Shown here piece by piece: positions 11,088-60,675 of a stretch of 64,000 bases of DNA. Numbering within the stretch: position 1 is the stretch's first letter; every line of letters begins with the position of its first letter. A program made the position numbers and the translations under genes. This DNA is from a virus. Under the pieces are notes generated by a model that was not told where the DNA came from, did no database searches, and saw nothing but the letters and a program-made list of their open reading frames with translations. The stretch covers positions 1 through 64,000 of the IMG/VR virus record IMGVR_UViG_3300025093_000013. One strand, 5' to 3'.

Positions 11088-11101
11088 TACTATAATAGGT
11101 C

Positions 11102-11533
11102 ATGGCTATCTACGAGTTCATCTGTCATGACTGTGAAGTAATTTGGGAACGGGAAGCGCCTATGAGTAAAGCGCCTTCCCGTTCTCGTTGTCCTGAGTGT
11201 AAAAAGCTTAAGAACAGGCATTGGGGCGATGTCCCTGTAATGTTTAATGGCAACGACTACTACACTAACAAGCGCAAGCAGCACAAACTTGTCTACGAAG
11301 ACAAGGCTAAGGGCAAGGAGGTTATGGAAAACCTACTTGATGCCACGAAGCGAATGGGTGAAGAAACTAAATGTCCATACAAACAATATGGGCTTACTGA
11401 AGAAGGCGTCGAAGCCTACGGTGGTGTACGAAAAACAGAGGCTGATAAAAAAATGTCCGAGAAAATGGGTGACAAGATGAAGGAATCAGTCTACAATAAC
11501 AGCCAAGCGTACCGAAACCTTGGCAAACGATAA
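11102..11533 (+). CDS. FmdB-family zinc-ribbon protein
   Basis: MAIYEFICHDC...CPEC. Confidence 0.8.
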   Translation: MAIYEFICHDCEVIWEREAPMSKAPSRSRCPECKKLKNRHWGDVPVMFNGNDYYTNKRKQHKLVYEDKAKGKEVMENLLDATKRMGEETKCPYKQYGLTEEGVEAYGGVRKTEADKKMSEKMGDKMKESVYNNSQAYRNLGKR

Positions 11534-13201: not shown

Positions 13202-13640
13202 TGACCTACTAAAAGCATACGACGAGCTAGACATGGATCTTTACCTTAAGCTCGCGGACAGCCTGCTTAGTATCGATAAGTTTTCTGTAAACGACGAGAT
13301 CCTTAAGCACTCTCGTATTTATTCCTACTACTGTGGTCTACTAGAGTTTGCGACCAAGAGCGTCAAGGACTACGAGGTAGACATGGAGAAGCATGAGGTG
13401 GATTTGAAAAATGATGCCCGTGATGCTATTATTCAAGCTGGGGCAAGGGCAACGGTCGCTGCTGTCGATGACTATGTTGGCCGTGATTCTACCCTACATA
13501 GTATGAAGAAGAACCTTGAGGAGAAGCGTTACAAGCAGGGTCTCCTCAAGTCTCTAGTCCAATCTATGTCACATAGAAAGGATCTGCTTGTACAACTATC
13601 TGCAAATTCTCGCGCTGAGACGAGAATGATCACTGACTGA
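13191..13640 (+). CDS. UvsY-like recombination mediator (putative)
   Basis: Helical ~150 aa protein between the helicase and SSB, with a TVAAVDDYV segment. Position and size match. Confidence 0.5.
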   Translation: MKSDDLLKAYDELDMDLYLKLADSLLSIDKFSVNDEILKHSRIYSYYCGLLEFATKSVKDYEVDMEKHEVDLKNDARDAIIQAGARATVAAVDDYVGRDSTLHSMKKNLEEKRYKQGLLKSLVQSMSHRKDLLVQLSANSRAETRMITD

Positions 13641-13663
13641 ACTACTATATAAGGAAACTAACT

Positions 13664-14437
13664 ATGGCTATTGACCTAAACGCGCTTCGTGCGAAGCACC
13701 AACAACTTACTAACCCTAAAACTGGTGGTGGAGATCAGGACTTCCTGAACAAATTCTACCAAGTAAAGGAGGGCGAGGCTTACCTTCGTATCCTTCCTGC
13801 TCCTGCGGATTCTGACAAGAACTTCTACGCAGAGACTAAGATCCACCGTGTTCCTCAACCTGATGGCTCGGTGAAGAATGTACACTGCCGTAAGGTGCAT
13901 GGGGAGAAGTGCCCTCTCTGTGACCTGTACTACGGTCTGTGGAAAACTGGTTCCAAGGAGGACGAGGACCTTGCTCGGCAAATCAAGCCCCGTGCTCGCT
14001 ACTACCTGAACGCCTATGACCGTGAGAACGAGGAGGTCAAGATCTTCTCCATCGGCGTTATTCTCTTCCAGAAGATTGTTGAGACCATGATGGATCCCGA
14101 CTACGCTGATCTTTTCGAGGAGTCTGAGAATGGTATCCTTGATACCGAGATCGGCCACGACTTCAAGCTTCATATGAAGAAGGAAGGACAATGGCCCAAG
14201 TACGATCAGTCGATGTTCCGCCCCAAGGCAACATCGCTTGGCAGCAAGAAGATGATCTCAGAGGTGATGGAGTCTCTTCACGATATTCACTCCCTTGTGA
14301 AGCTTGAAGAGTACGATGATGTGAAAGAGGCGGTTCTCAACCTGCGGCCTGAGCTTATGCCACGGGAACGCACTCTTCAAGAGGATTCTTCGGATGCAGG
14401 TTCCGATGATGATTTTACTAAGAGGTTAATGTCATGA
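13664..14437 (+). CDS. Single-stranded DNA-binding protein (T4 gp32-like)
   Basis: LRILP, HC...CPLC zinc site, KYDQSMF, acidic C-terminal tail. Confidence 0.85.
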   Translation: MAIDLNALRAKHQQLTNPKTGGGDQDFLNKFYQVKEGEAYLRILPAPADSDKNFYAETKIHRVPQPDGSVKNVHCRKVHGEKCPLCDLYYGLWKTGSKEDEDLARQIKPRARYYLNAYDRENEEVKIFSIGVILFQKIVETMMDPDYADLFEESENGILDTEIGHDFKLHMKKEGQWPKYDQSMFRPKATSLGSKKMISEVMESLHDIHSLVKLEEYDDVKEAVLNLRPELMPRERTLQEDSSDAGSDDDFTKRLMS

Positions 14438-14991
14438 AACTTATCAATGTAATCGCAGCCTCAGTCCTAGTGTTCGGTACTACATCGTGCGCTGTTCTGA
14501 AGGAACTTATTGGTGACGGTACAGTCTTTACCACAGCCGATCAACTTGCCGAAGGTCAACAGGGCGCTGTCATCCCTTGGGAACAGCTTCCTGAGGAGAT
14601 CAAGGCTAAGATTCCTGAGGGCACTCAGGTCGTTGTAGCAGACAAGGAGCAACTTAAAGAAGATGCTGCTTATATCGCTGCTACTCCAGACGAGGGTGAC
14701 ATCGGGGCCATGATCGACGCTGGCTTTGGTATCGCAAGTACCTTCCTTCCTGGCCTTGCTGCATGGGAGGGCGTTGTAACGATGTTCTCTCAGCGTAAGC
14801 GCAAGCACTATGTTAAGGCAGCCAAGTCCCTTGTACCACACAAGGGAGATCCTACAGTTGATGTAGGTGGGACTGTCAAGGCTGTTGCTTCTGCACTTGG
14901 CCTAGCACACTCAACTGAGGCATCAAAGATTGCTGCTGACGATGAGCATGAGTACGAGTACGAAGAAGTACCCGAAGAGTCTGTTTCGTGA
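14434..14991 (+). CDS. Predicted lipoprotein
   Basis: Signal peptide ending VLVFGTTSC (lipobox-like). Confidence 0.55.
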   Translation: MKLINVIAASVLVFGTTSCAVLKELIGDGTVFTTADQLAEGQQGAVIPWEQLPEEIKAKIPEGTQVVVADKEQLKEDAAYIAATPDEGDIGAMIDAGFGIASTFLPGLAAWEGVVTMFSQRKRKHYVKAAKSLVPHKGDPTVDVGGTVKAVASALGLAHSTEASKIAADDEHEYEYEEVPEESVS

Positions 14992-14994
14992 TAA

Positions 14995-15130
14995 TCGCTG
15001 TGTCTGAGACAATCCCGACGAAGGAGGTGATCCTACTAGAGTGTTCTAGAGGGATCCTGTCGGGCAGCGAAGATTAGACAGTCTAGAAACTCGAAAAAAG
15101 CGTTAGACGGGCGCTTTAAAAATCTCAGGC
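14995..15130 (+). ncRNA. Candidate structured RNA containing AAGGAGGUGAUCC (complement of the 16S rRNA 3' end)
   Basis: Nested stems CCCGAC/GTCGGG, GATCC/GGATC, CTAGA/TCTAG, TCGCTG/CAGCGA. Possible H-type pseudoknot GTCTAG/TTAGAC plus AAAGCG/CGCTTT. Confidence 0.6.
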
Positions 15131-15143
15131 TGGCACTATAATA

Positions 15144-15173
15144 GGGAGACGGTTCAAAGCCGTCTCCCTTCTT
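15144..15173 (+). terminator. GC-rich hairpin, probable intrinsic terminator
   Basis: GGGAGACGG-ttcaaag-CCGTCTCCC followed by TTCTT. Confidence 0.55.
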
Positions 15174-15758
15174 ATGTTTAAGCAGTTTCAAAGACAGTCC
15201 TTCTGGTCTGGTTTACTACAAAAAGCCTTAGCAAAAGGAACTATTCATGATTCTCTAGGAACAGGAATAGATCACTGCTTATTCAATGCTATTGAGTACA
15301 GGCATATTTCTCTAATAGAAAAACTAATACACAGAGGTAATCTGGATCCTATCAAGACTCCTTTAACCACTGATTCTAATCTCAAAGATCATCTAAAGAA
15401 TTCTAATACTAAGGTTTTAGATGTTGCATGTGGATATGGAAGATTCGCTAAATACTTCAACCCACACAACTACATGGGGGTTGACAGTTGCCAGTCTTTC
15501 ATATCTCTGGCAACTGAAAATAATCCAGAGCATACTTTTTTAGTAGCGGATGTTAGCCACCTGAACTTTGATGATAAAGAGTATGATCTTGGGATAGTAT
15601 GTGGTTTTAGGCGAATGATCTGTGATTCAGATGGGCTAAAGGAGTGGAATAAGATTAACAAAGAAATTAAGAGAGTATGCAAGAAGGTTTTATACCTTGA
15701 ATATACTAACGGAAATTCATATTTCTTACTAGATGACTACGAGATTTACAATGGATAA
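15174..15758 (+). CDS. Class I SAM-dependent methyltransferase
   Basis: VLDVACGYGR motif I, YMGVD. Confidence 0.85.
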   Translation: MFKQFQRQSFWSGLLQKALAKGTIHDSLGTGIDHCLFNAIEYRHISLIEKLIHRGNLDPIKTPLTTDSNLKDHLKNSNTKVLDVACGYGRFAKYFNPHNYMGVDSCQSFISLATENNPEHTFLVADVSHLNFDDKEYDLGIVCGFRRMICDSDGLKEWNKINKEIKRVCKKVLYLEYTNGNSYFLLDDYEIYNG

Positions 15759-16947
15759 TAAACTAAAGATACTAGTTGTACCTGCCAATGATGGTGGATG
15801 TGCGTATTACAGAGCGTGGCTACCTTTTAATAAGCTGGCTCAACACTATGGCGATAAAGTAGAAGTTCGCTTTAACAAGAACCCTTTGGGCATAGAAGAA
15901 GAGGGTGAAAGGCAGGGGCAGTGGAAACAGGACTGGGAGTTCGAGGATATGAAGTGGGCTGATATTATCTTCACTCAGAACCTTAGTAACTTTGGTGGAC
16001 CATATACCGCTCGTATCGTAGGCAAGGCTAAAGAGTTTGGCAAGTTCATGCACTACGACACTGATGACCTTCTGACCGATGTTTACAAAGGTCACAGGCT
16101 AGAGAAGGTATACGAGGAGCGAGGACTTAGTGAGATTACTAAGTTTATCTATCACAACTCTGACCTCGTAACTGTAACTCAACAGAAGTTTGCAGAAAGG
16201 GTACATCCCTTCTGTGGTGAAAAGACAACTCTTGCGATTGTAAAGAATGCCATTGATTACGAGCTTCCTTGCTGGAACATGCCAAAGGTTTCACCACAAA
16301 GGAAGAATCTATGTCGTGTAGGCTGGGTAGGAGGCATTCACCATGAGCAGGACCTGAGAGAGTTTGTAGGTGTTCCTTGGCTTGTGAACCAAAAGGCAGG
16401 CCGTGAGCGCGTTCACTGGGACTTCTATGGACGCCCCCCAGTGCCCCCAGACACAAAACCAGACTGGCAACAGGATGTATGGGACAACTATACTAGAATG
16501 CTCACAGCGGGCTTTAGAGGAGCTAGGAACTGGGCTGTACGACAAGCCATGGGTCCTGATCGCTATGGTGAGTTCTACACTCACATGGATGTAGCAATCG
16601 CTCCTCTACAATTCAATGCGTTCAATGACAGTAAGAGTGAGATTAAAGTAGCTGAGTGTGGCCGTTATGGTATTCCTCTTGTAGCTACAGACTGTGGATG
16701 CTACGACGAGACTATTAAGAATGGTCATACAGGATACTTGATTGACAAGAACAACACCAAGTCTGATTGGGTAAAGGTCATGACCAGAATGATCAAGGAC
16801 AAGAAAGGTCGTGAGGAGATGGGCGCTAACCTTAAGAGCGTCACTGATCAATACTTTGATATCAACAAGGTCGTCAAGTTTAGACTGGATCTCTACAAGC
16901 AACTACAAATCAAAAATGAAGTTCTCGATAATAGTGCCGCACTATGA
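15751..16947 (+). CDS. Glycosyltransferase (GT-B, GT4-like)
   Basis: GGCAYYR, YDTDD, DVAIAPL..FNDSKSEIK..E, TGYLI. Confidence 0.85.
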   Translation: MDNKLKILVVPANDGGCAYYRAWLPFNKLAQHYGDKVEVRFNKNPLGIEEEGERQGQWKQDWEFEDMKWADIIFTQNLSNFGGPYTARIVGKAKEFGKFMHYDTDDLLTDVYKGHRLEKVYEERGLSEITKFIYHNSDLVTVTQQKFAERVHPFCGEKTTLAIVKNAIDYELPCWNMPKVSPQRKNLCRVGWVGGIHHEQDLREFVGVPWLVNQKAGRERVHWDFYGRPPVPPDTKPDWQQDVWDNYTRMLTAGFRGARNWAVRQAMGPDRYGEFYTHMDVAIAPLQFNAFNDSKSEIKVAECGRYGIPLVATDCGCYDETIKNGHTGYLIDKNNTKSDWVKVMTRMIKDKKGREEMGANLKSVTDQYFDINKVVKFRLDLYKQLQIKNEVLDNSAAL

Positions 16948-24754: not shown

Positions 24755-24783
24755 TAGAAGTCAAATTTCAACTATTATAGACT

Positions 24784-25758
24784 ATGCGCGATGATGTAAT
24801 CAAGTCCCTCAAAACTGCGGGACTTCTTTCCGATCAGAAGCTTGACCTTGGCTTCGTTTCAACAGGGTCCTACGCTCTCAACAAGATCTGCTCTGGTGAC
24901 TACCAAAAGGGAATCCCCATTGGTATGATTACGCAGTTTCATGGTGAGGCATCCACAGCTAAGACTGTATTTGTTACCCATATCCTTGCCAACGCACAGA
25001 AGCAAGGGTATCATACAGTTCTTATTGACGCTGAGAATGCTTACAACTCAGAGTTTGCATCAACACTAGGTATTGATCCAAACAACCTGATCTACGCAGC
25101 ACCTCATACTTTGGAGGATTGCTTTGCTACCATGGAAACTCTCATCAGAGAGATTCGTGAAGTTGATAAAGAGACTCCAATTGTTATTGGCTACGATAGT
25201 ATTGCCGTATCACCTAGCAAAGAGGAGATGACAAAGACTGATTATGAATCACACCAAATGACAGGTGCGATGAGAGCTAAGGTAACGGGTGCTTGCCTAC
25301 GCAAGATCAACCCACTACTGCGCGAGTTTGGTGTTGCTCTGGTCATTGTGAACCAGATCCGCAACAAGGTGGGTGTGATGTATGGTGATCCTAGAACGCC
25401 AGCAGCAGGAGGTAAATCTCTTGAATACTACCTCGGTCTGAACTTCATGACCTCTGCTCCAAAGAATGAGAGGATACAAGACGATAATAAAAGCGTGGTA
25501 GGTATCCGTGGTAAGGTAGCTAATGTAAAGAACAAAGTGACTAAACCTTTCCAAGATGCAGAGTTTGAACTATTATATGATGTAGGTCTAACTCCGCACT
25601 ATGGAGTGCTTGATCTTCTGGTCAAGGACAAGATAGTAGAACGGTCTGGTGCTTGGTATCAATTTGGCGAAGAGGCCAAGTTTCAAGCCAAGACATTCAA
25701 CGAAGGGTTTATGACTGACGATAAGTTCAAGACACTAAGGGAGAAGATAGGACTATGA
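24784..25758 (+). CDS. recA: RecA/UvsX recombinase
   Basis: STGSYALN, G.ASTAKT (Walker A variant), IDAENA, YDSIA, NQIR, GGKSLEYY, KNKV. Confidence 0.9.
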   Translation: MRDDVIKSLKTAGLLSDQKLDLGFVSTGSYALNKICSGDYQKGIPIGMITQFHGEASTAKTVFVTHILANAQKQGYHTVLIDAENAYNSEFASTLGIDPNNLIYAAPHTLEDCFATMETLIREIREVDKETPIVIGYDSIAVSPSKEEMTKTDYESHQMTGAMRAKVTGACLRKINPLLREFGVALVIVNQIRNKVGVMYGDPRTPAAGGKSLEYYLGLNFMTSAPKNERIQDDNKSVVGIRGKVANVKNKVTKPFQDAEFELLYDVGLTPHYGVLDLLVKDKIVERSGAWYQFGEEAKFQAKTFNEGFMTDDKFKTLREKIGL

Positions 25759-29616: not shown

Positions 29617-29638
29617 TACACAACACTATAATAGAACT

Positions 29639-29797
29639 ATGAAAAATCTTACTAAACTTTGTTACTTCGCTGGTTATGCCAGCATTCCCATCTCAGTGCT
29701 TACTTACTTTCAGCACGCACCCAAAGCTGGGATCTTTATTGGACTTTGGGTTCCTACCCTTCTACTATCAGGTATGATCGCTAGGGACTCTAGCTGA
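29639..29797 (+). CDS. Small membrane protein (52 aa)
   Basis: MKNLTKLCYFAGYASIPISVL...GIFIGLWVPTLLL. TATAAT lies 6 nt before the ATG. Confidence 0.55.
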   Translation: MKNLTKLCYFAGYASIPISVLTYFQHAPKAGIFIGLWVPTLLLSGMIARDSS

Positions 29798-30052: not shown

Positions 30053-30093
30053 TACACTAGTATATTCCCTATGAGGAAATACTATAATAGTGC

Positions 30094-30915
30094 ATGAAGA
30101 AATTTCTCGCAGCACTAATGCTACTCGCGCCTGTTACGCAGGCACAAAATGTCATCACCACTGATGGCACCTTCATTGAAAACCAGACATTCGAAGGCAT
30201 GGTCCAAGTTCGGGCTCATAATGTAACCCTTCGTAACTGTACCTTTAACAGTGGACCTCTTGCTCCAAACTGGTATGGTGTAACGAATGTTTACAACAAT
30301 GAGGACGGCACTCCCAAGTCCACTAATTTCCGTCTTGAGAACTGCACTATCCGTGGCGGTTGCACTGGAGTTTATGTTCAGTACGCTACTGTCATCGGAT
30401 GCGACATTCAAGAGACTGGTAAGGATGGTATGAAGATTGGAGGCGGCGGAAACTGCATGATCCGCAATAACTATGTTGCTCGCATTGGCCTACAAGTTGG
30501 TGCCCATGCTGATGCCCTACAATCTGTTGGTGGTAGTCATGTGTTTGTCATTGGCAATCACTTTGATATTCCCGTCACCTTTGCTGACGAGAATGGTTAT
30601 CTTAGTAACGCCTGTATCATTCTACAATCTCAGGTTAAAGAGATTCACGACTGGTATATTTGGGGCAATCACTTTGAGGGAGGTAGCTACACGATCTACA
30701 TCAAAGATAAGGACCATCCTAACTACCCTGGGATTCAGCCTCCTTATAGGATTCGCATGAACAACAATACCTTTGGTTATGATTACCGTTATGGTCTAGC
30801 ATCTATTGATACTCACCCCACCATCCAAATCAACTTCAATGTGATGGATGATGGAGTTCCACTAACAGGAGGTCCTTGGCCCATCAATACTTGGGACAAC
30901 TGGCCTCAATGGTGA
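30094..30915 (+). CDS. Secreted pectin-lyase-like beta-helix protein
   Basis: Signal peptide MKKFLAALMLLAPVTQA; VTLRNC and FRLENC repeats; AHADALQ. Confidence 0.65.
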   Translation: MKKFLAALMLLAPVTQAQNVITTDGTFIENQTFEGMVQVRAHNVTLRNCTFNSGPLAPNWYGVTNVYNNEDGTPKSTNFRLENCTIRGGCTGVYVQYATVIGCDIQETGKDGMKIGGGGNCMIRNNYVARIGLQVGAHADALQSVGGSHVFVIGNHFDIPVTFADENGYLSNACIILQSQVKEIHDWYIWGNHFEGGSYTIYIKDKDHPNYPGIQPPYRIRMNNNTFGYDYRYGLASIDTHPTIQINFNVMDDGVPLTGGPWPINTWDNWPQW

Positions 30916-54957: not shown

Positions 54958-55367
54958 TGTTTAAGTCCTTTTCAACTCTAAAGACTGTTCTTGATGACGC
55001 TGATGTTTCAGCCAGGGCAAGAAGAGTATTTAGAGATGCTCAGATCGTTTTCTCTGACTCTACAGGCCCTGTGATAGCAGTTTTTGGTATTGGTGATTTA
55101 AAGGGTCGTAAAGGAAACGATTACAAGGCTGCTTTTTTCAGAATTAGTTCTACTAGGATAGCTCTTAGAATATTTAATTCTAGTGGCACGGGCATTGAAA
55201 CCCATGTTGGAAACTCGACGGGCTCTGGTGATGAAGTAGAACAAATGGTAGCTGCCGCCGCAAATAGCCCTTATGTTAAGATTAGGTTTGTAAAGAATAG
55301 CTCTGAAAGCTTTTCGCCTTCAATTAACTACGCTGATGCAACATCATTCAGAGGTGGCGCAGGTTGA
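54957..55367 (+). CDS. Hypothetical virion protein
   Basis: Late operon. Confidence 0.5.
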   Translation: MFKSFSTLKTVLDDADVSARARRVFRDAQIVFSDSTGPVIAVFGIGDLKGRKGNDYKAAFFRISSTRIALRIFNSSGTGIETHVGNSTGSGDEVEQMVAAAANSPYVKIRFVKNSSESFSPSINYADATSFRGGAG

Positions 55368-55380
55368 TATATAATATATC

Positions 55381-58248
55381 ATGGCAGACCAAATACCTTT
55401 AAGAATAGTTACTGTCTCAGGTCAACCCTTTATTGGAGAGTTTCAATCAGGTGACACCGTTGGAGTCGTTCATGGTGGAACTGGTGCATCAAGTATAGCT
55501 GGTCTAAAAACCGCCTTAGACTATAACCTAACTGGTTTAGACGATGTTGCTGTAGGGTTCCCTGATGCGTTATCAGCTAACCAAATTATTGTTTGGAACG
55601 GGACTGCTTGGGTAAACGAATACAACGACAAGACTGAGATGCGTGTTCGGAACGGCAACGAAGTTGCCATGAGCAAGGGTGATGTAATTGCCATTAAAGA
55701 TTCTCAGAACGCTAATCTTGTAAATGTTATCCTAGCAGATGCATCTCAAACATCTGCTATGCCTGCTCTTGGTGTTCTTGAGCAAGACCTTGCTGTAGGT
55801 GAAGAGGGTATTGCAATTACTTTTGGCAAGGCTCAGGGTCTTAATACATCGGGTCTTACAGAAGGTGCAACTGCTTATGTGAGTCCTACAACTCCAGGGG
55901 GTATCACTACTACTAAACCCACCTCTGGAGATCACTTTATTCAAAACATAGGTATCGTTATGAGAGCAAATGCTTTTAACGGTGCTATTAAGGTTACTGG
56001 TATTGGTCGTGCTAACGATATACCTAACGCGGAGATTACGACACTATCAGGTGATGCTGATTATGTTTACATTGATGATGGTGGTGTTTGGAAAAAGATT
56101 ACTCCCGCAAACCTAGGTGTAGGTAGTGGAGGTGGAGGATCCGCATCCTTATCAGGTCTAACTGACACTAATATTTCATCTCCTTCACATAATGAATCTC
56201 TTGTTTGGACATCCTCCACAGGAGAGTGGATCAATGCTAGTGTCGCAGGTGGTGGAGGAGTAACGGATCACGGGCTACTTACAGGTCTAAGCGATAACGA
56301 TCACCCACAGTATGTTCTAACTACTATCAATAATGATCTGTCAACTCTTGTAACAAACATAGAAACCTCTACAGTTGATATATCAGGTTACATAGCTGCC
56401 AATGAAACCACATGGTCAACTGACAACGATACAACAGATCACACTGCTCTGAGTAATATAGGCACAAACACTCACGCCCAGATTGATAGTCACATAGCCT
56501 CAGGTTCTGTACACTTTACAGAAGCGAGCATTGATCATGGATCTATTGCTGGTCTAGGTGACAATGACCATCCTCAGTATGTTCTTTCTGCTACTAATAA
56601 TGCTCTATCAAGCCTTGTAACGAGTGTAGAAACATCTACAGTAAGCCTTTCTAGCTATATTGCGGCTAATGAGACTACATGGTCAACTGACAATGACACG
56701 ACTGATCACACTGCCTTAAGTAATATCGGTACTAACACCCATGCTCAAATCGATAGCCATATTGCTTCAGGATCCGTACACTTCACAGAAGCGAGTATTG
56801 ACCATGGATCTATTGCTGGACTAGCAGACAATGATCACCCTCAGTATGTTCTTTCGGCAACTAACAACGATCTGTCTACGCTTGTCACTAGCGTTGAAAC
56901 ATCTACTGTAAGCCTTTCAAGCTATATCGCTGCTAACGAAACAACTTGGTCCACGGATAATGACACAACAGATCATACTGCCTTAAGTAATATAGGAACT
57001 AATACCCACGCTCAGATTGATAGCCATATTGCGTCTGGGTCTGTACACTTTACAGAAGCAAGCATTGACCACGGATCTATCGCTGGTCTTGGTGATAACG
57101 ATCACCCTCAATATGTTCTCTCTGCTACCAATAATGCTCTATCAAGCCTTGTAACGAGTGTAGAAACATCAACAGTTAATCTATCTGGGTATATTGCAGC
57201 TAACGAGACAACTTGGGCTACTGATACTGACACCACTGATCACACTGCTCTAAGTAATATCGGTACTAATACACACGCTCAGATTGATACTCATATTAGT
57301 AACCACACCACCTCAGCAAATACTTGGAATGGTACTTACCAGACGGTATTTGATAACTCGGGTAGTTGGGGTGGTGGAGGAGGAGTCACCGATCACGGCG
57401 CTTTAACGGGTCTAGCCGACAACGATCACCCGCAGTATGTGCTATCTTCTACTAACGCTGCGCTAAGTTCTCTTGTAACAGATACCACAGACGCAAGCAC
57501 ATTGTTCAGCGGAAACATTACTGTAACAGGAACTACTGCAACTCATATAGGAACTCTAGGAACTACTGACGCTGCTACATTCGGATTACAATCAAGCGGT
57601 AACACTTCCATAATTGCACCATCTCTAATATTGAGTGCGACTACAGCCTATCAATTCCGTAAGAATGGTAGCACTACATTCACTGATACAGACTTCCCTC
57701 AGTCTTGTAGGGATTGGGACTCTACCTACAACACTGTTCTTAACAGTTCAGGTTCTTGGGGTGGTGGAGGCGGTGGAGGCGTAGCCGCTGGTATTACTGT
57801 TGTTAACACGGGAACAGATAATATTAACTCTACTGGTGGTGCCCTTGTTCCATTAGATGTAACCGCTGGATATCCTGCATATGGAAGTTATGCTACAGAC
57901 TTTAGTTACACTCCTGGTAATGCCTATGTAACTATCAACACAGCAGGAACTTACGAGGTAACATTTAATGTTGGTTACATTTCAACAACCACTCGATGGA
58001 ACGGTGTATTAAAAATATACAAAGGTACTGGTGGAGCATCCCCAAGTGCGTGGATTGGTTATGGAGCAGGCAAGATGGGTTATGTAAGAAACTCAAGTGG
58101 TCATAACGAGTCCTCTCTAATTGTAACCTGTCTTGTAACCTGTTCCGCTAATGATACTGTAGGTGGTCATGTAATTAACGAAGCCACTAGCGGAACATGT
58201 ACTCTGGTTGCTAACGAAACATTCATGACAATTAAGAGGATGTCTTGA
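55381..58248 (+). CDS. Fibre-like virion protein with 89-aa His-rich tandem repeats
   Basis: DHPQY units at 56299, 56566, 56833 and 57100 (267-nt period); Gly linkers; C1q-like beta C-terminus. Confidence 0.7.
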   Translation: MADQIPLRIVTVSGQPFIGEFQSGDTVGVVHGGTGASSIAGLKTALDYNLTGLDDVAVGFPDALSANQIIVWNGTAWVNEYNDKTEMRVRNGNEVAMSKGDVIAIKDSQNANLVNVILADASQTSAMPALGVLEQDLAVGEEGIAITFGKAQGLNTSGLTEGATAYVSPTTPGGITTTKPTSGDHFIQNIGIVMRANAFNGAIKVTGIGRANDIPNAEITTLSGDADYVYIDDGGVWKKITPANLGVGSGGGGSASLSGLTDTNISSPSHNESLVWTSSTGEWINASVAGGGGVTDHGLLTGLSDNDHPQYVLTTINNDLSTLVTNIETSTVDISGYIAANETTWSTDNDTTDHTALSNIGTNTHAQIDSHIASGSVHFTEASIDHGSIAGLGDNDHPQYVLSATNNALSSLVTSVETSTVSLSSYIAANETTWSTDNDTTDHTALSNIGTNTHAQIDSHIASGSVHFTEASIDHGSIAGLADNDHPQYVLSATNNDLSTLVTSVETSTVSLSSYIAANETTWSTDNDTTDHTALSNIGTNTHAQIDSHIASGSVHFTEASIDHGSIAGLGDNDHPQYVLSATNNALSSLVTSVETSTVNLSGYIAANETTWATDTDTTDHTALSNIGTNTHAQIDTHISNHTTSANTWNGTYQTVFDNSGSWGGGGGVTDHGALTGLADNDHPQYVLSSTNAALSSLVTDTTDASTLFSGNITVTGTTATHIGTLGTTDAATFGLQSSGNTSIIAPSLILSATTAYQFRKNGSTTFTDTDFPQSCRDWDSTYNTVLNSSGSWGGGGGGGVAAGITVVNTGTDNINSTGGALVPLDVTAGYPAYGSYATDFSYTPGNAYVTINTAGTYEVTFNVGYISTTTRWNGVLKIYKGTGGASPSAWIGYGAGKMGYVRNSSGHNESSLIVTCLVTCSANDTVGGHVINEATSGTCTLVANETFMTIKRMS

Positions 58249-59066: not shown

Positions 59067-59290
59067 TCCAGTTTAGTGCCTTCTTTAAGAAGGTTGATAA
59101 TCTTCTCAATGTATCCATCCTTTAATACACGGACGGTGTTGTAGAAGTTCTGCATCTCTCTCATCTTTAGCAGGGTGATGGAGGGATCTTTCTCAAGCAT
59201 TTCGAGAGTTCCTTTGAGAGATCTAATAGTTGCCATCTCGGCTTCTGTTAGTCTTCCGCGAGCCTTTTTGAGTTCTTCTTCGCTTTTCAT
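59063..59290 (-). CDS. Hypothetical protein
   Basis: Coupled to the helicase gene. Confidence 0.5.
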   Translation of the reverse strand: MKSEEELKKARGRLTEAEMATIRSLKGTLEMLEKDPSITLLKMREMQNFYNTVRVLKDGYIEKIINLLKEGTKLD

Positions 59291-60651
59291 ACCTTTATGA
59301 CCTCATGTCCTTCAGAGACATAGGTTGAGAATCGTTTATTTGCGTGGGCACCAATATATTTTCCTGTATCCATGAAATCATAGACATATACCACTTCCTT
59401 AGTGTCATGGCGACGAAGAGAGCGTCCGAGTGCTTGTATGGTTGCAATAGGACTCTTAAGGCCGCGAGCATTGATGAAATGTGTGATTTCGCGTATGTTA
59501 ACTCCTGTTTGCAAAATCTTCGTTCCAATAAGGATTGAGTTTTCTCCACACTCTGTAAACCGTCGAATGGTTTCATACCTACTGCCGAGATCATCTTCAC
59601 CTCTAAGGAAATAACAAGATCCTCCAATTCCCTCTTGAAGGATGTGACCGTGTTCAAGGTCTCTGACGAGTACAAGTATTCTGGCTTGTTCATGGTTTGA
59701 TCTGATATCATCCACGATATCTTTGATCATGTTATTTCTGATTTCGTTGTTGACAATAAGTTCTTCGTAAACTCCTCTGTACCCTAGCTCTGAGTCATCA
59801 ACTTCAGACTCAGGAACTTTGAGCATTTGTATGATTGGTTTGGTCAGGACATTATCCTCGATAAGATCTTGAGTTGTCCTGCATGTGTATATAGGTCCGA
59901 ACGCTGATATAAGCGTCCATCGAGGGATTGGGTCCTGCGGCACTGTGGCAGTGAAACCGTACCTGTAAGGAGCGTTAGGAAAGCTCTCAATAGCTGCTAC
60001 GGTGAACTCTCCGTTAGCAAACTCATGAACCTCATCCACCATGAGCACCTCGGCATCTGTGACATAATTGTCGATAATTCTTTCAATGCTTTGGACGGTA
60101 CACAGCATGATGTCACCATCCTCGTAGCCCTCACCAAAGCAGACACCTACATTGTTGAAACCACACTCGTTCACAAAGAAGTCGTAAGTTTGTTTTAAGA
60201 GGGACTTGGCATTGAATAGGATGACCATCTTCTTGCCCATGAGAGACTTGACGATGCCAGCCATAATTAAAGTTTTGCCTGCACCAGTAGGAGCCTTGAT
60301 GATACAGCGATGATTATTCAGCGCGTGTTGGATCGATTCATGCTGATAATCAAAATAAGTAAAAGGATCGATAGATTTAAGAGGAAGAGACTCTGGGCGT
60401 TCATTCTTATATTCTAGCTCAGGAACACAATCAATCTTCTCTAGGTCGGCCAGGATAGAAGGTAACATGCCTGTACCGAACTGACCACCTCTGGTAAAGA
60501 AACGCTTCTTACCATCCCATTGACGCCTCTTGTAGGCTGGTGTAAACTCAGCCCCAGGTATCTTGAAGCTATATAAGTTACTGAGAGCCTTTAGGATCTT
60601 AGGATTATCAGTCTTGAGTTTGGATTTCTGTGTTCCAATCACAATTTTCAT
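59287..60651 (-). CDS. SF2 helicase (T4 UvsW-like)
   Basis: WDGK, APTGAGKT, DEVH, GFTAT, QALGRSLR, VYDF. Confidence 0.9.
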   Translation of the reverse strand: MKIVIGTQKSKLKTDNPKILKALSNLYSFKIPGAEFTPAYKRRQWDGKKRFFTRGGQFGTGMLPSILADLEKIDCVPELEYKNERPESLPLKSIDPFTYFDYQHESIQHALNNHRCIIKAPTGAGKTLIMAGIVKSLMGKKMVILFNAKSLLKQTYDFFVNECGFNNVGVCFGEGYEDGDIMLCTVQSIERIIDNYVTDAEVLMVDEVHEFANGEFTVAAIESFPNAPYRYGFTATVPQDPIPRWTLISAFGPIYTCRTTQDLIEDNVLTKPIIQMLKVPESEVDDSELGYRGVYEELIVNNEIRNNMIKDIVDDIRSNHEQARILVLVRDLEHGHILQEGIGGSCYFLRGEDDLGSRYETIRRFTECGENSILIGTKILQTGVNIREITHFINARGLKSPIATIQALGRSLRRHDTKEVVYVYDFMDTGKYIGAHANKRFSTYVSEGHEVIKV

Positions 60652-60652
60652 A

Positions 60653-60675
60653 CTTTATTATAGACTATAATAAAG
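60653..60675. promoter_or_regulatory. Palindromic bidirectional promoter
   Basis: CTTTATTATAG-A-CTATAATAAAG carries TATAAT on both strands between divergent genes. Confidence 0.7.

Follow-up and report, generated by a model that had tools for sequence, protein, structure and literature searches.

The window analysed here comprises positions 1 to 64,000 of IMGVR_UViG_3300025093_000013, a 112,473-bp IMG/VR virus record from an uncultured, estuarine phage. Between a lipoprotein-like gene and a methyltransferase gene, it carries a non-coding RNA element of ~145 nt that is real, conserved and structured and that displays a long, perfect Shine-Dalgarno (SD) sequence without a start codon to serve. 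We infer that the element is a domain of a 3' untranslated region (UTR) that docks the 16S rRNA tail of a 30S subunit without initiation and acts mainly in cis. This is the reading that we favour, tentatively. That the element holds a ribosomal subunit is probable, on the basis of predicted binding energies.

The sequence AAGGAGGTGATCC (15021-15033, plus strand) is an exact complement, over 13 of 13 nt, of the bacterial 16S 3' tail GGAUCACCUCCUU, as a preliminary description of this DNA had pointed out. It occurs once in the window and once in the entire record; by arithmetic, ~0.002 copies are expected by chance per 64 kb, counting both strands. The description had called the motif far longer than a normal SD, and 16S complements at the predicted gene starts of the phage indeed reach 8 nt at most. 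It had also seen no substantial open reading frame (ORF) behind the motif, only GTG-TTC-TAG. This holds as well: the GTG at 15041, spaced 7 nt 3' of the 13-mer, is the sole start codon within range, and all three plus-strand frames terminate within 13 codons. The AAGGAGG core, described as left in a loop, is predicted to be mainly unpaired (P 0.45-0.99), and the GAUCC end of the 13-mer is predicted to be paired in the lowest-energy fold.

The position of the GTG might suggest an ordinary ribosome-binding site (RBS), either of the mini-ORF or left over from a lost gene. Three distant relatives, L024, L026 and L027, do hold a gene of ~75 aa with a strong SD in the same slot. Yet the GTG is GTT in the variant L089 (loop GUUU), indels break all frames on both strands, and a decaying remnant would not exceed its neighbour genes in conservation. 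The ~75-aa gene was considered as the ancestor and rejected, the element showing no similarity to it other than short chance words. We regard an ordinary RBS as very improbable. In the three relatives (3500-3760 in L024), the gene encodes an acidic, coiled-coil-like protein and lies between the lipoprotein gene and the promoter/terminator module described below.

Searches that used both upstream proteins and DNA patterns as queries yielded ~70 related viral loci and 12 metagenome contigs. Viral and metagenome contigs together contain 12 distinct versions of the element, every one at the same locus. Between lineages, identity is 95-100% over the 109-nt core (15013-15121) and 78-85% over the flanking coding DNA. 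This excess of core over flank identity points to selection at the nucleotide level. The preliminary description had proposed to look for conservation of motif and structure in related phages; the 13-mer is invariant in all 12 variants and the structure shows covariation. It had also suggested a search of Rfam, which revealed no such family: a scan of the window at gathering thresholds gave four tRNAs only, and a permissive scan of 14800-15400 gave a best match at E = 2, a chance value.

The insert is restricted to one patchily distributed subclade, where it adjoins a promoter/terminator of the PeSL type. Relatives whose lipoprotein identity is at most 77%, plus a clade with 80% SSB identity, are devoid of the ~125-nt SD-bearing part. 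Their order is SSB, lipoprotein, CTATAAT-hairpin-T-run-ATG and glycosyltransferase, with the module almost directly after the stop codon. Neither a second copy nor a distant homologue of the element was found in the genome or in 90 compared loci with blastn-short and nhmmer (the latter over 650 kb). Cultured phage records gave no blastn match, a tblastn search with the SSB returned only relatives at 33% identity or less, and an exact 19-mer of the element was not found in 185,579 species genomes. Locus L072, which has the 19-mer in an unrelated GC-rich context, was set aside.

The 182-nt stretch folds with a predicted energy of -69.1 kcal/mol, compared with -49.1 +/- 4.2 kcal/mol for shuffled sequences (z = -4.8). 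A closing helix, P1, joins bases right after the stop codon to bases right before, or overlapping, CACUAUAAU. The domain thus closed begins a few bases past the stop codon, and P1 abuts the intrinsic terminator. This helix is preserved by five sequence pairs, namely that of the window (Table 1) and UAGUGUCU/AGACACUA, GUCUGAG/CUCAGAC, UAGUGCU/GGCACUA and UAGUACCU/AGGUACUA. Cognate flanks pair at -11.9 to -16.1 kcal/mol, which 0-13 of 500 shuffles match; most non-cognate combinations pair less strongly.

Segment B (UCUAG) has two exclusive partners, A (CUAGA, apical) and C (CUAGAAACUC, 40 nt downstream). Fold 1 combines A:B with GAUCC/GGAUC (stem S1) and CCCGAC/GUCGGG (P2). In each variant this is the fold of lowest energy, and it hides the final 5-7 nt of the 13-mer. 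Fold 2 combines B:C with CUGUC/GACAG (h5) and excludes A:B and P2; it leaves the entire 13-mer inside a single strand of ~25 nt, at a predicted energy 1.8-8.4 kcal/mol above fold 1. In L089, the most divergent variant, segments A, B and C are all altered in step, and both A:B and B:C are compensated: in fold 2, a bulged G becomes a U paired to an inserted A and a G-C pair becomes A-U. Across the 12 variants, 99.0% of the cells are paired in fold 2 (with P4 and the terminator) and 89.8% in fold 1, a gap that is partly an alignment-register artefact in the GAUCC stem. S1 keeps its 5 bp throughout and grows to 6-7 bp in L003-type variants, and P4 carries a 1-nt deletion with a shifted register in L089. 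Covariation supports the closing helix, the terminator and the two mutually exclusive pairings of one segment.

Most of the stems in the preliminary description are present, namely CCCGAC/GTCGGG, GATCC/GGATC, CTAGA/TCTAG, GTCTGAGA/TCTCAGGC, AAAGCG/CGCTTT and the terminator hairpin. Two others, TCGCTG/CAGCGA and TGTCTGA/TTAGACA, are confined to variants whose 5' flank is of the window type; L074 and L089 lack them. The proposed H-type pseudoknot did not survive comparison, since its arm GTCTAG is not conserved (GTGCTAG in L003, GAACTAG in L074).

The minus strand of the same stretch folds almost equally well (z = -4.7), and a functional RNA made from it would carry an exact copy of the 16S tail that could pair with the SDs of mRNAs. 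On that strand, the P2 C.A mismatch of L003-type variants would become a G.U pair. Against such an RNA, the neighbour genes and the strong terminator all lie on the plus strand, and a hairpin with a T-run (the P4 complement) would precede the motif. The G.U pairs of P1, h5 and P4 exist on the plus strand and would turn into A.C mismatches, and the T-run of the terminator is on the plus strand only. This strand evidence favours the plus strand as the RNA and makes a minus-strand product extremely unlikely.

All genes of the region are on the plus strand, in the order DnaB-like helicase, small ORFs, SSB, lipoprotein-like gene, intergenic stretch, methyltransferase and GT1 glycosyltransferase. 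A search for the sigma70 consensus found no promoter of its own upstream of the element, and a promoter/terminator module ends the stretch. The element is therefore the 3' UTR of the SSB-lipoprotein operon and not a free-standing small RNA gene. The interpretation in the preliminary description is partly supported, in that the RNA is non-coding, structured and conserved. Contigs from RNA libraries of four separate studies extend from the lipoprotein gene into the element (14446-15071, 14695-15068, 14825-15065 and 14926-15128). Their cover ends at 15065-15128, with none over 15130-16100. This end was not used as evidence; it may reflect a transcript end, a break in assembly caused by strain variation, or a bias in the choice of runs.

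The duplex of the 13-mer with the 16S tail has a predicted energy of about -24 kcal/mol. After the predicted cost of 8-11 kcal/mol for opening the element, every variant retains a net -13.6 to -16.1 kcal/mol. For comparison, the phage's strongest genuine RBSs form raw duplexes of -10.7 to -15.6 kcal/mol. Docking of a 30S subunit is plausible because the net predicted binding equals or exceeds these raw values. The 16S tail of a 30S subunit would first pair with the looped AAGGAGG and would next invade the GAUCC/GGAUC stem. Since this removes the GAUCC stem, docking would favour fold 2: the RNA would move from the masked fold (A:B with P2) to the B:C long hairpin, and the complete 13-mer would be freed. 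The docked subunit could not initiate because no start codon is in range, and it would stay parked on the element. The likeliest primary effect would be in cis, namely a ribosome-capped, compact 3' end that resists nucleases and prolongs the life of the operon mRNA or of a 3' fragment. Any sequestration of 30S subunits would be incidental, on a scale set by the abundance of the RNA. The element would then be the 3'-UTR counterpart of start-less SDs that stabilise mRNAs.

Several observations weigh against docking and stabilisation. The 12 sequences are few and represent only ~5 independent lineages. Recombination contributes to the pattern, as L083 is a recombinant inside the core and the lineages show a shuffled distribution of two terminator types; recent recombination could account in part for how nearly identical the core is. 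The P4 loop and the A tracts, which are unpaired too, vary no more than the 13-mer does, so that conservation fails to single out the SD. P2 is perfect in 6 of the 12 variants and has an uncompensated C.A mismatch in the other 6. Just 7-8 nt of the 13-mer are predicted to be freely exposed, because GAUCC is paired in the lowest-energy fold. The RNA-library contigs may include DNA and carry no strand, end or level information. Finally, known SD stabilisers are 5'-located and stop 5'-to-3' decay, and a site in the 3' UTR cannot shield the coding part in this way.

The fold might also matter while the 16S complementarity goes unused. The element would then be a processing or stabilising structure of the 3' UTR, for instance an RNase III-type site leaving a protective 3' hairpin, or a site for a phage or host protein, such as an operator for the SSB or another regulator. 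The elaborate covarying structure fits this explanation, as do the unpaired UUAGACGG and A tracts, as invariant as the SD, and an AGAC(A/G)G motif that is present twice. P2, the internal loop and S1 with A:B form an irregular hairpin of ~18 bp that resembles phage RNase III sites. What it leaves unexplained is that a 16S match so rarely expected by chance is nonetheless invariant, and that start-less perfect SDs near terminators recur in unrelated phage contigs. We consider a function of the fold alone somewhat unlikely.

The docking that we favour has precedents among start-less strong SDs, which stabilise mRNAs via 30S binding (PMC4113751, PMC7509114). The STAB-SD of Bacillus thuringiensis cry3A, the SP82 polypurine sequence and ermC/ompA constructs share with the present element a non-initiating SD complementary to the 16S 3' end; here, the 13-mer is followed only by a 2-codon ORF, whose start is lost in L089. 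Those sequences, however, are 5'-proximal, act against 5'-to-3' decay by RNase J1, are ~9 nt long and are unstructured. In contrast, the present element has 13 nt within a covarying fold of ~145 nt with two alternative pairings, and its SD lies in the 3' UTR, behind the last ORF of the operon and 110 nt before the terminator. Because of this position and its far more elaborate build, we regard it as a new variant related to the STAB-SD stabilisers and not as a member of them. Its 3'-end position is covered by no described mechanism.

Two other systems exploit related pairings. The icaR mRNA of Staphylococcus aureus likewise uses SD/anti-SD complementarity of a 3' UTR for control, but its 3' UTR holds an anti-SD-like motif that pairs with its own SD (PMC3868564), whereas here the 3' UTR holds the SD. 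No complementary partner of at least 7 nt was found on the plus strand of the operon (13640-14991), and genome-wide only scattered 7-10-mers at chance level were seen. The P6 region of OLE RNA is a non-coding mimic of the SD:anti-SD duplex bound by bS21 (PMC12054373). In some variants of the present element, GUGAUCC/GGAUCAC mimics the distal part of that helix. However, OLE holds both core strands, whereas here the CCUCC strand is missing, the SD core is free and the phage encodes no bS21. A search for bS21 (PF01165) found none in the phage, and the same search detected the family in reference genomes.

The module that ends the intergenic stretch is a sigma70-like promoter fused to a stem-loop terminator at an indel junction, a description that applies to 15115-15179 only. 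It resembles the PeSL cassettes of T4-like phages, likewise joining a -10 box, a stem-loop and a T-run between genes (PMC2839356, PMC4122927). Its CTATAAT is kept in relatives both with and without the insert. In the window, a 194-aa S-adenosylmethionine (SAM) methyltransferase gene sits exactly at the end of the module. L080, 99% identical upstream, passes straight into the glycosyltransferase gene, without the methyltransferase; therefore, the module acts as a PeSL-like indel junction. The SD-bearing insert, however, lies outside the module, and most relatives carry the module alone (L010-L038, L046, L049, L053, L057, L061 and L067).

This neighbourhood bears on the idea that the conserved stretch is a feature of the DNA with no RNA function, as part of a mobile regulatory cassette, a PeSL-adjacent recombination junction or a group of repeats that bind protein. 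PeSLs mediate shuffling at junctions of this kind (PMC2839356, PMC4122927), and the insert adjoins a junction at which a gene has come or gone. YTAGA is repeated five times, the distribution is patchy relative to SSB identity, the L083 recombinant exists and the minus strand folds about equally well. On the other hand, the TAGAC-A-GTCTA palindrome is not conserved, there is one copy per genome, and compensatory changes maintain helices whose G.U pairs work on the plus strand only. A purely DNA-level role is thus quite unlikely.

The same module also separates the element from the next gene, for which the element might serve as a standby site: where transcription runs past the terminator, the SD would hold a 30S subunit and hand it on to the downstream start. 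That ATG (15174 in the window, the glycosyltransferase ATG in relatives) has no SD, and a stable hairpin ends 4-7 nt before it. In tisB, a standby site ~100 nt upstream is known to work together with a structure (PMC7708055, PMC6690012). There, 30S binding is independent of initiator tRNA, depends on structure and occurs ~100 nt from a structured start, but in a single-stranded region of the 5' UTR dependent on protein S1; the present SD has 13 nt and sits in a 3' UTR, ahead of a terminator. Here, the terminator and a separate promoter lie between the SD and the ATG. The terminator, with its 12-bp stem and T-run, should block most read-through, the downstream gene has its own promoter within the module, and a 13-bp anchor should impede relocation. 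Moreover, element-less relatives show the same start behind the same module. A standby function appears decidedly improbable.

In nearly all relatives (L010-L067; window 15137-15173), the hairpin behind TATAAT has a 5' arm that is rich in purines and resembles an SD (AGGAGGA, AGGAAGG, AAGGTGG or AGAGAGGTGG). Its 3' arm and tail resemble the anti-SD (CCTCCTTTTTT, CCACCTTTTTT). Transcripts initiating ~7 nt past the -10 box would have only the pyrimidine arm as a leader. Antitermination, in which the SD would pair with the terminator's pyrimidine-rich 3' arm, was also considered and rejected: the pairing reaches only 6-9 bp, bulged or mismatched, and the terminator types differ.

The preliminary description had proposed a role in trans, in which an abundant RNA occupies the anti-SD of 30S subunits; SD-led host translation would fall and leaderless phage mRNAs would continue. 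The RNA would accumulate either within the mRNA or as a processed 3' fragment. The RNA has properties suited to this, namely a start-less SD of high predicted affinity in a compact fold bounded by a predicted terminator, carried on an SSB operon that is likely abundant. Small marine bacteria have few ribosomes, which would make titration easier. Many phage genes do look leaderless, as the description had claimed: many operon-first genes have (C)TATAAT or TATTAT 5-6 nt upstream of their ATG (Table 1). It had cautioned that some phage genes use an SD, and an SD core is found at 39 of 90 ATG-start ORFs (~40%, compared with a background of 15%), structural genes included. Judged from these start regions, the phage mixes leaderless-looking and SD-led initiation. 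A general block of the anti-SD would therefore hit the phage itself. The premise that ribosomes lacking a usable anti-SD select leaderless mRNAs is disputed (PMC12274833). The element is also confined to a single subclade, with close relatives of the same gene order lacking it; its SD is partly masked in the lowest-energy fold, no promoter of its own was detected and no bS21 is encoded by the phage. Phage SD use, subclade restriction, the masked SD and the disputed premise together weaken the decoy in trans, which we consider unlikely.

The decoy idea has a parallel in the toxins E. coli MazF and M. tuberculosis MazF and RelE1, which inactivate the anti-SD by removing or cutting it and so reprogramme translation (PMC12274833, PMC12620021). 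They differ in being irreversible protein nucleases and not an RNA competitor. Consistent with the statement in the preliminary description that no such system was known, literature searches turned up no described anti-SD decoy RNA. Searches for RegB and RegA gave no match, but their controls also matched nothing anywhere, and they prove nothing.

Table 1. Features of the intergenic element, its operon and leaderless-looking starts in the window
Feature	Position	Strand	Remarks
gp32-like SSB gene	13664-14437	+	
185-aa protein with lipoprotein-type signal	14434-14991	+	stop TGA 14989-14991
Whole non-coding insert, ~145 nt	14992-15136	+	between lipoprotein-gene stop and TATAAT/terminator module; 12 variants; no Rfam match
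P1 closing helix, 5' strand (GUCUGAGA)	15002-15009	+	pairs with 15123-15130
P2, 5' strand (CCCGAC)	15014-15019	+	pairs with 15059-15064 in fold 1
Start-less super-SD (13-nt 16S-tail complement)	15021-15033	+	unique in record; invariant in 12 variants; predicted duplex -24 kcal/mol
S1 stem, 5' strand (GAUCC, last 5 nt of 13-mer)	15029-15033	+	pairs with GGAUC 15052-15056
Apical hairpin A:B (CUAGA GUGU UCUAG)	15036-15049	+	compensated C-G to U-A in L089
Alternative long hairpin (fold 2)	15039-15092	+	B:C 15039-15049/15083-15092; CUGUC/GACAG 15057-61/15077-81
P4 hairpin (AAAGCG ... CGCUUU), A tracts on both sides	15097-15117	+	invariant; 100% paired
P1 closing helix, 3' strand (UCUCAGGC)	15123-15130	+	overlaps CACUA just 5' of TATAAT in other variants
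Sigma70-like promoter of downstream gene (TTTAAA, 16 nt, TATAAT 15137-15142)	15115-15142	+	module common to all relatives, outside insert
Intrinsic terminator (12-bp stem, 3-nt loop, T-rich tail reaching ATG 15174)	15143-15179	+	3 compensated pairs between lineages
SAM methyltransferase gene, 194 aa	15174-15758	+	directly after intergenic stretch
TATAAT-ATG starts	ATG 11102, 24784, 29639, 30094, 55381 and others		-10 box 5-6 nt upstream
Leaderless-looking regions	11091-11104, 24770-24786, 29627-29641, 30080-30096, 55367-55383, 59287-60666		

If the element docks a 30S subunit, phages would use SD:anti-SD pairing for a purpose besides starting translation, and at the 3' end of a message. The element lends itself to experiment, being a compact RNA of ~145 nt in which GGAGG is an obvious site to mutate, two conformations are predicted and natural variants can act as controls. 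Orphan SD elements also offer a direct route to ask whether blocking the anti-SD reprogrammes translation.

Such orphans occur elsewhere. A sample of 108 distinct sites of the perfect 14-mer AAAGGAGGTGATCC in IMG/VR contigs (loci L090-L205) splits into 21 ordinary RBSs, 47 sites inside long open frames, many of which encode K-E-V-I, and 40 orphans outside long frames (for example L195, L159, L134, L149, L118 and L182). ATCT follows the 14-mer within 0-6 nt in 20 of the 40 orphans, compared with ~3% by chance and none of the 21 RBS sites. A terminator-like hairpin lies at most 110 nt downstream in 16 of the 40. An Rfam scan of 11 orphan-SD loci revealed tRNAs only. The present element is a different build of this theme, because it has no AUCU and ~110 nt of structure between SD and terminator. 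The recurrence in unrelated contigs suggests a possibly widespread, unannotated kind of phage RNA element. In a bolder reading, which we consider unlikely, the element belongs to a wider class of start-less perfect SDs that capture host 30S subunits by the 16S tail at the 3' ends of phage transcripts; here, the captured share would suffice to shift translation from SD-led host mRNAs to leaderless early mRNAs of the phage, and docking would flip the RNA between its two covarying folds.

Perfect 14-nt SDs also stand before lysine-rich ORFs of 15-18 codons in the unrelated contigs L137, L140, L120, L175 and L155. The short ORFs begin with MAKPKQKG..., VAAKKGKG... or MAMKKGKG....

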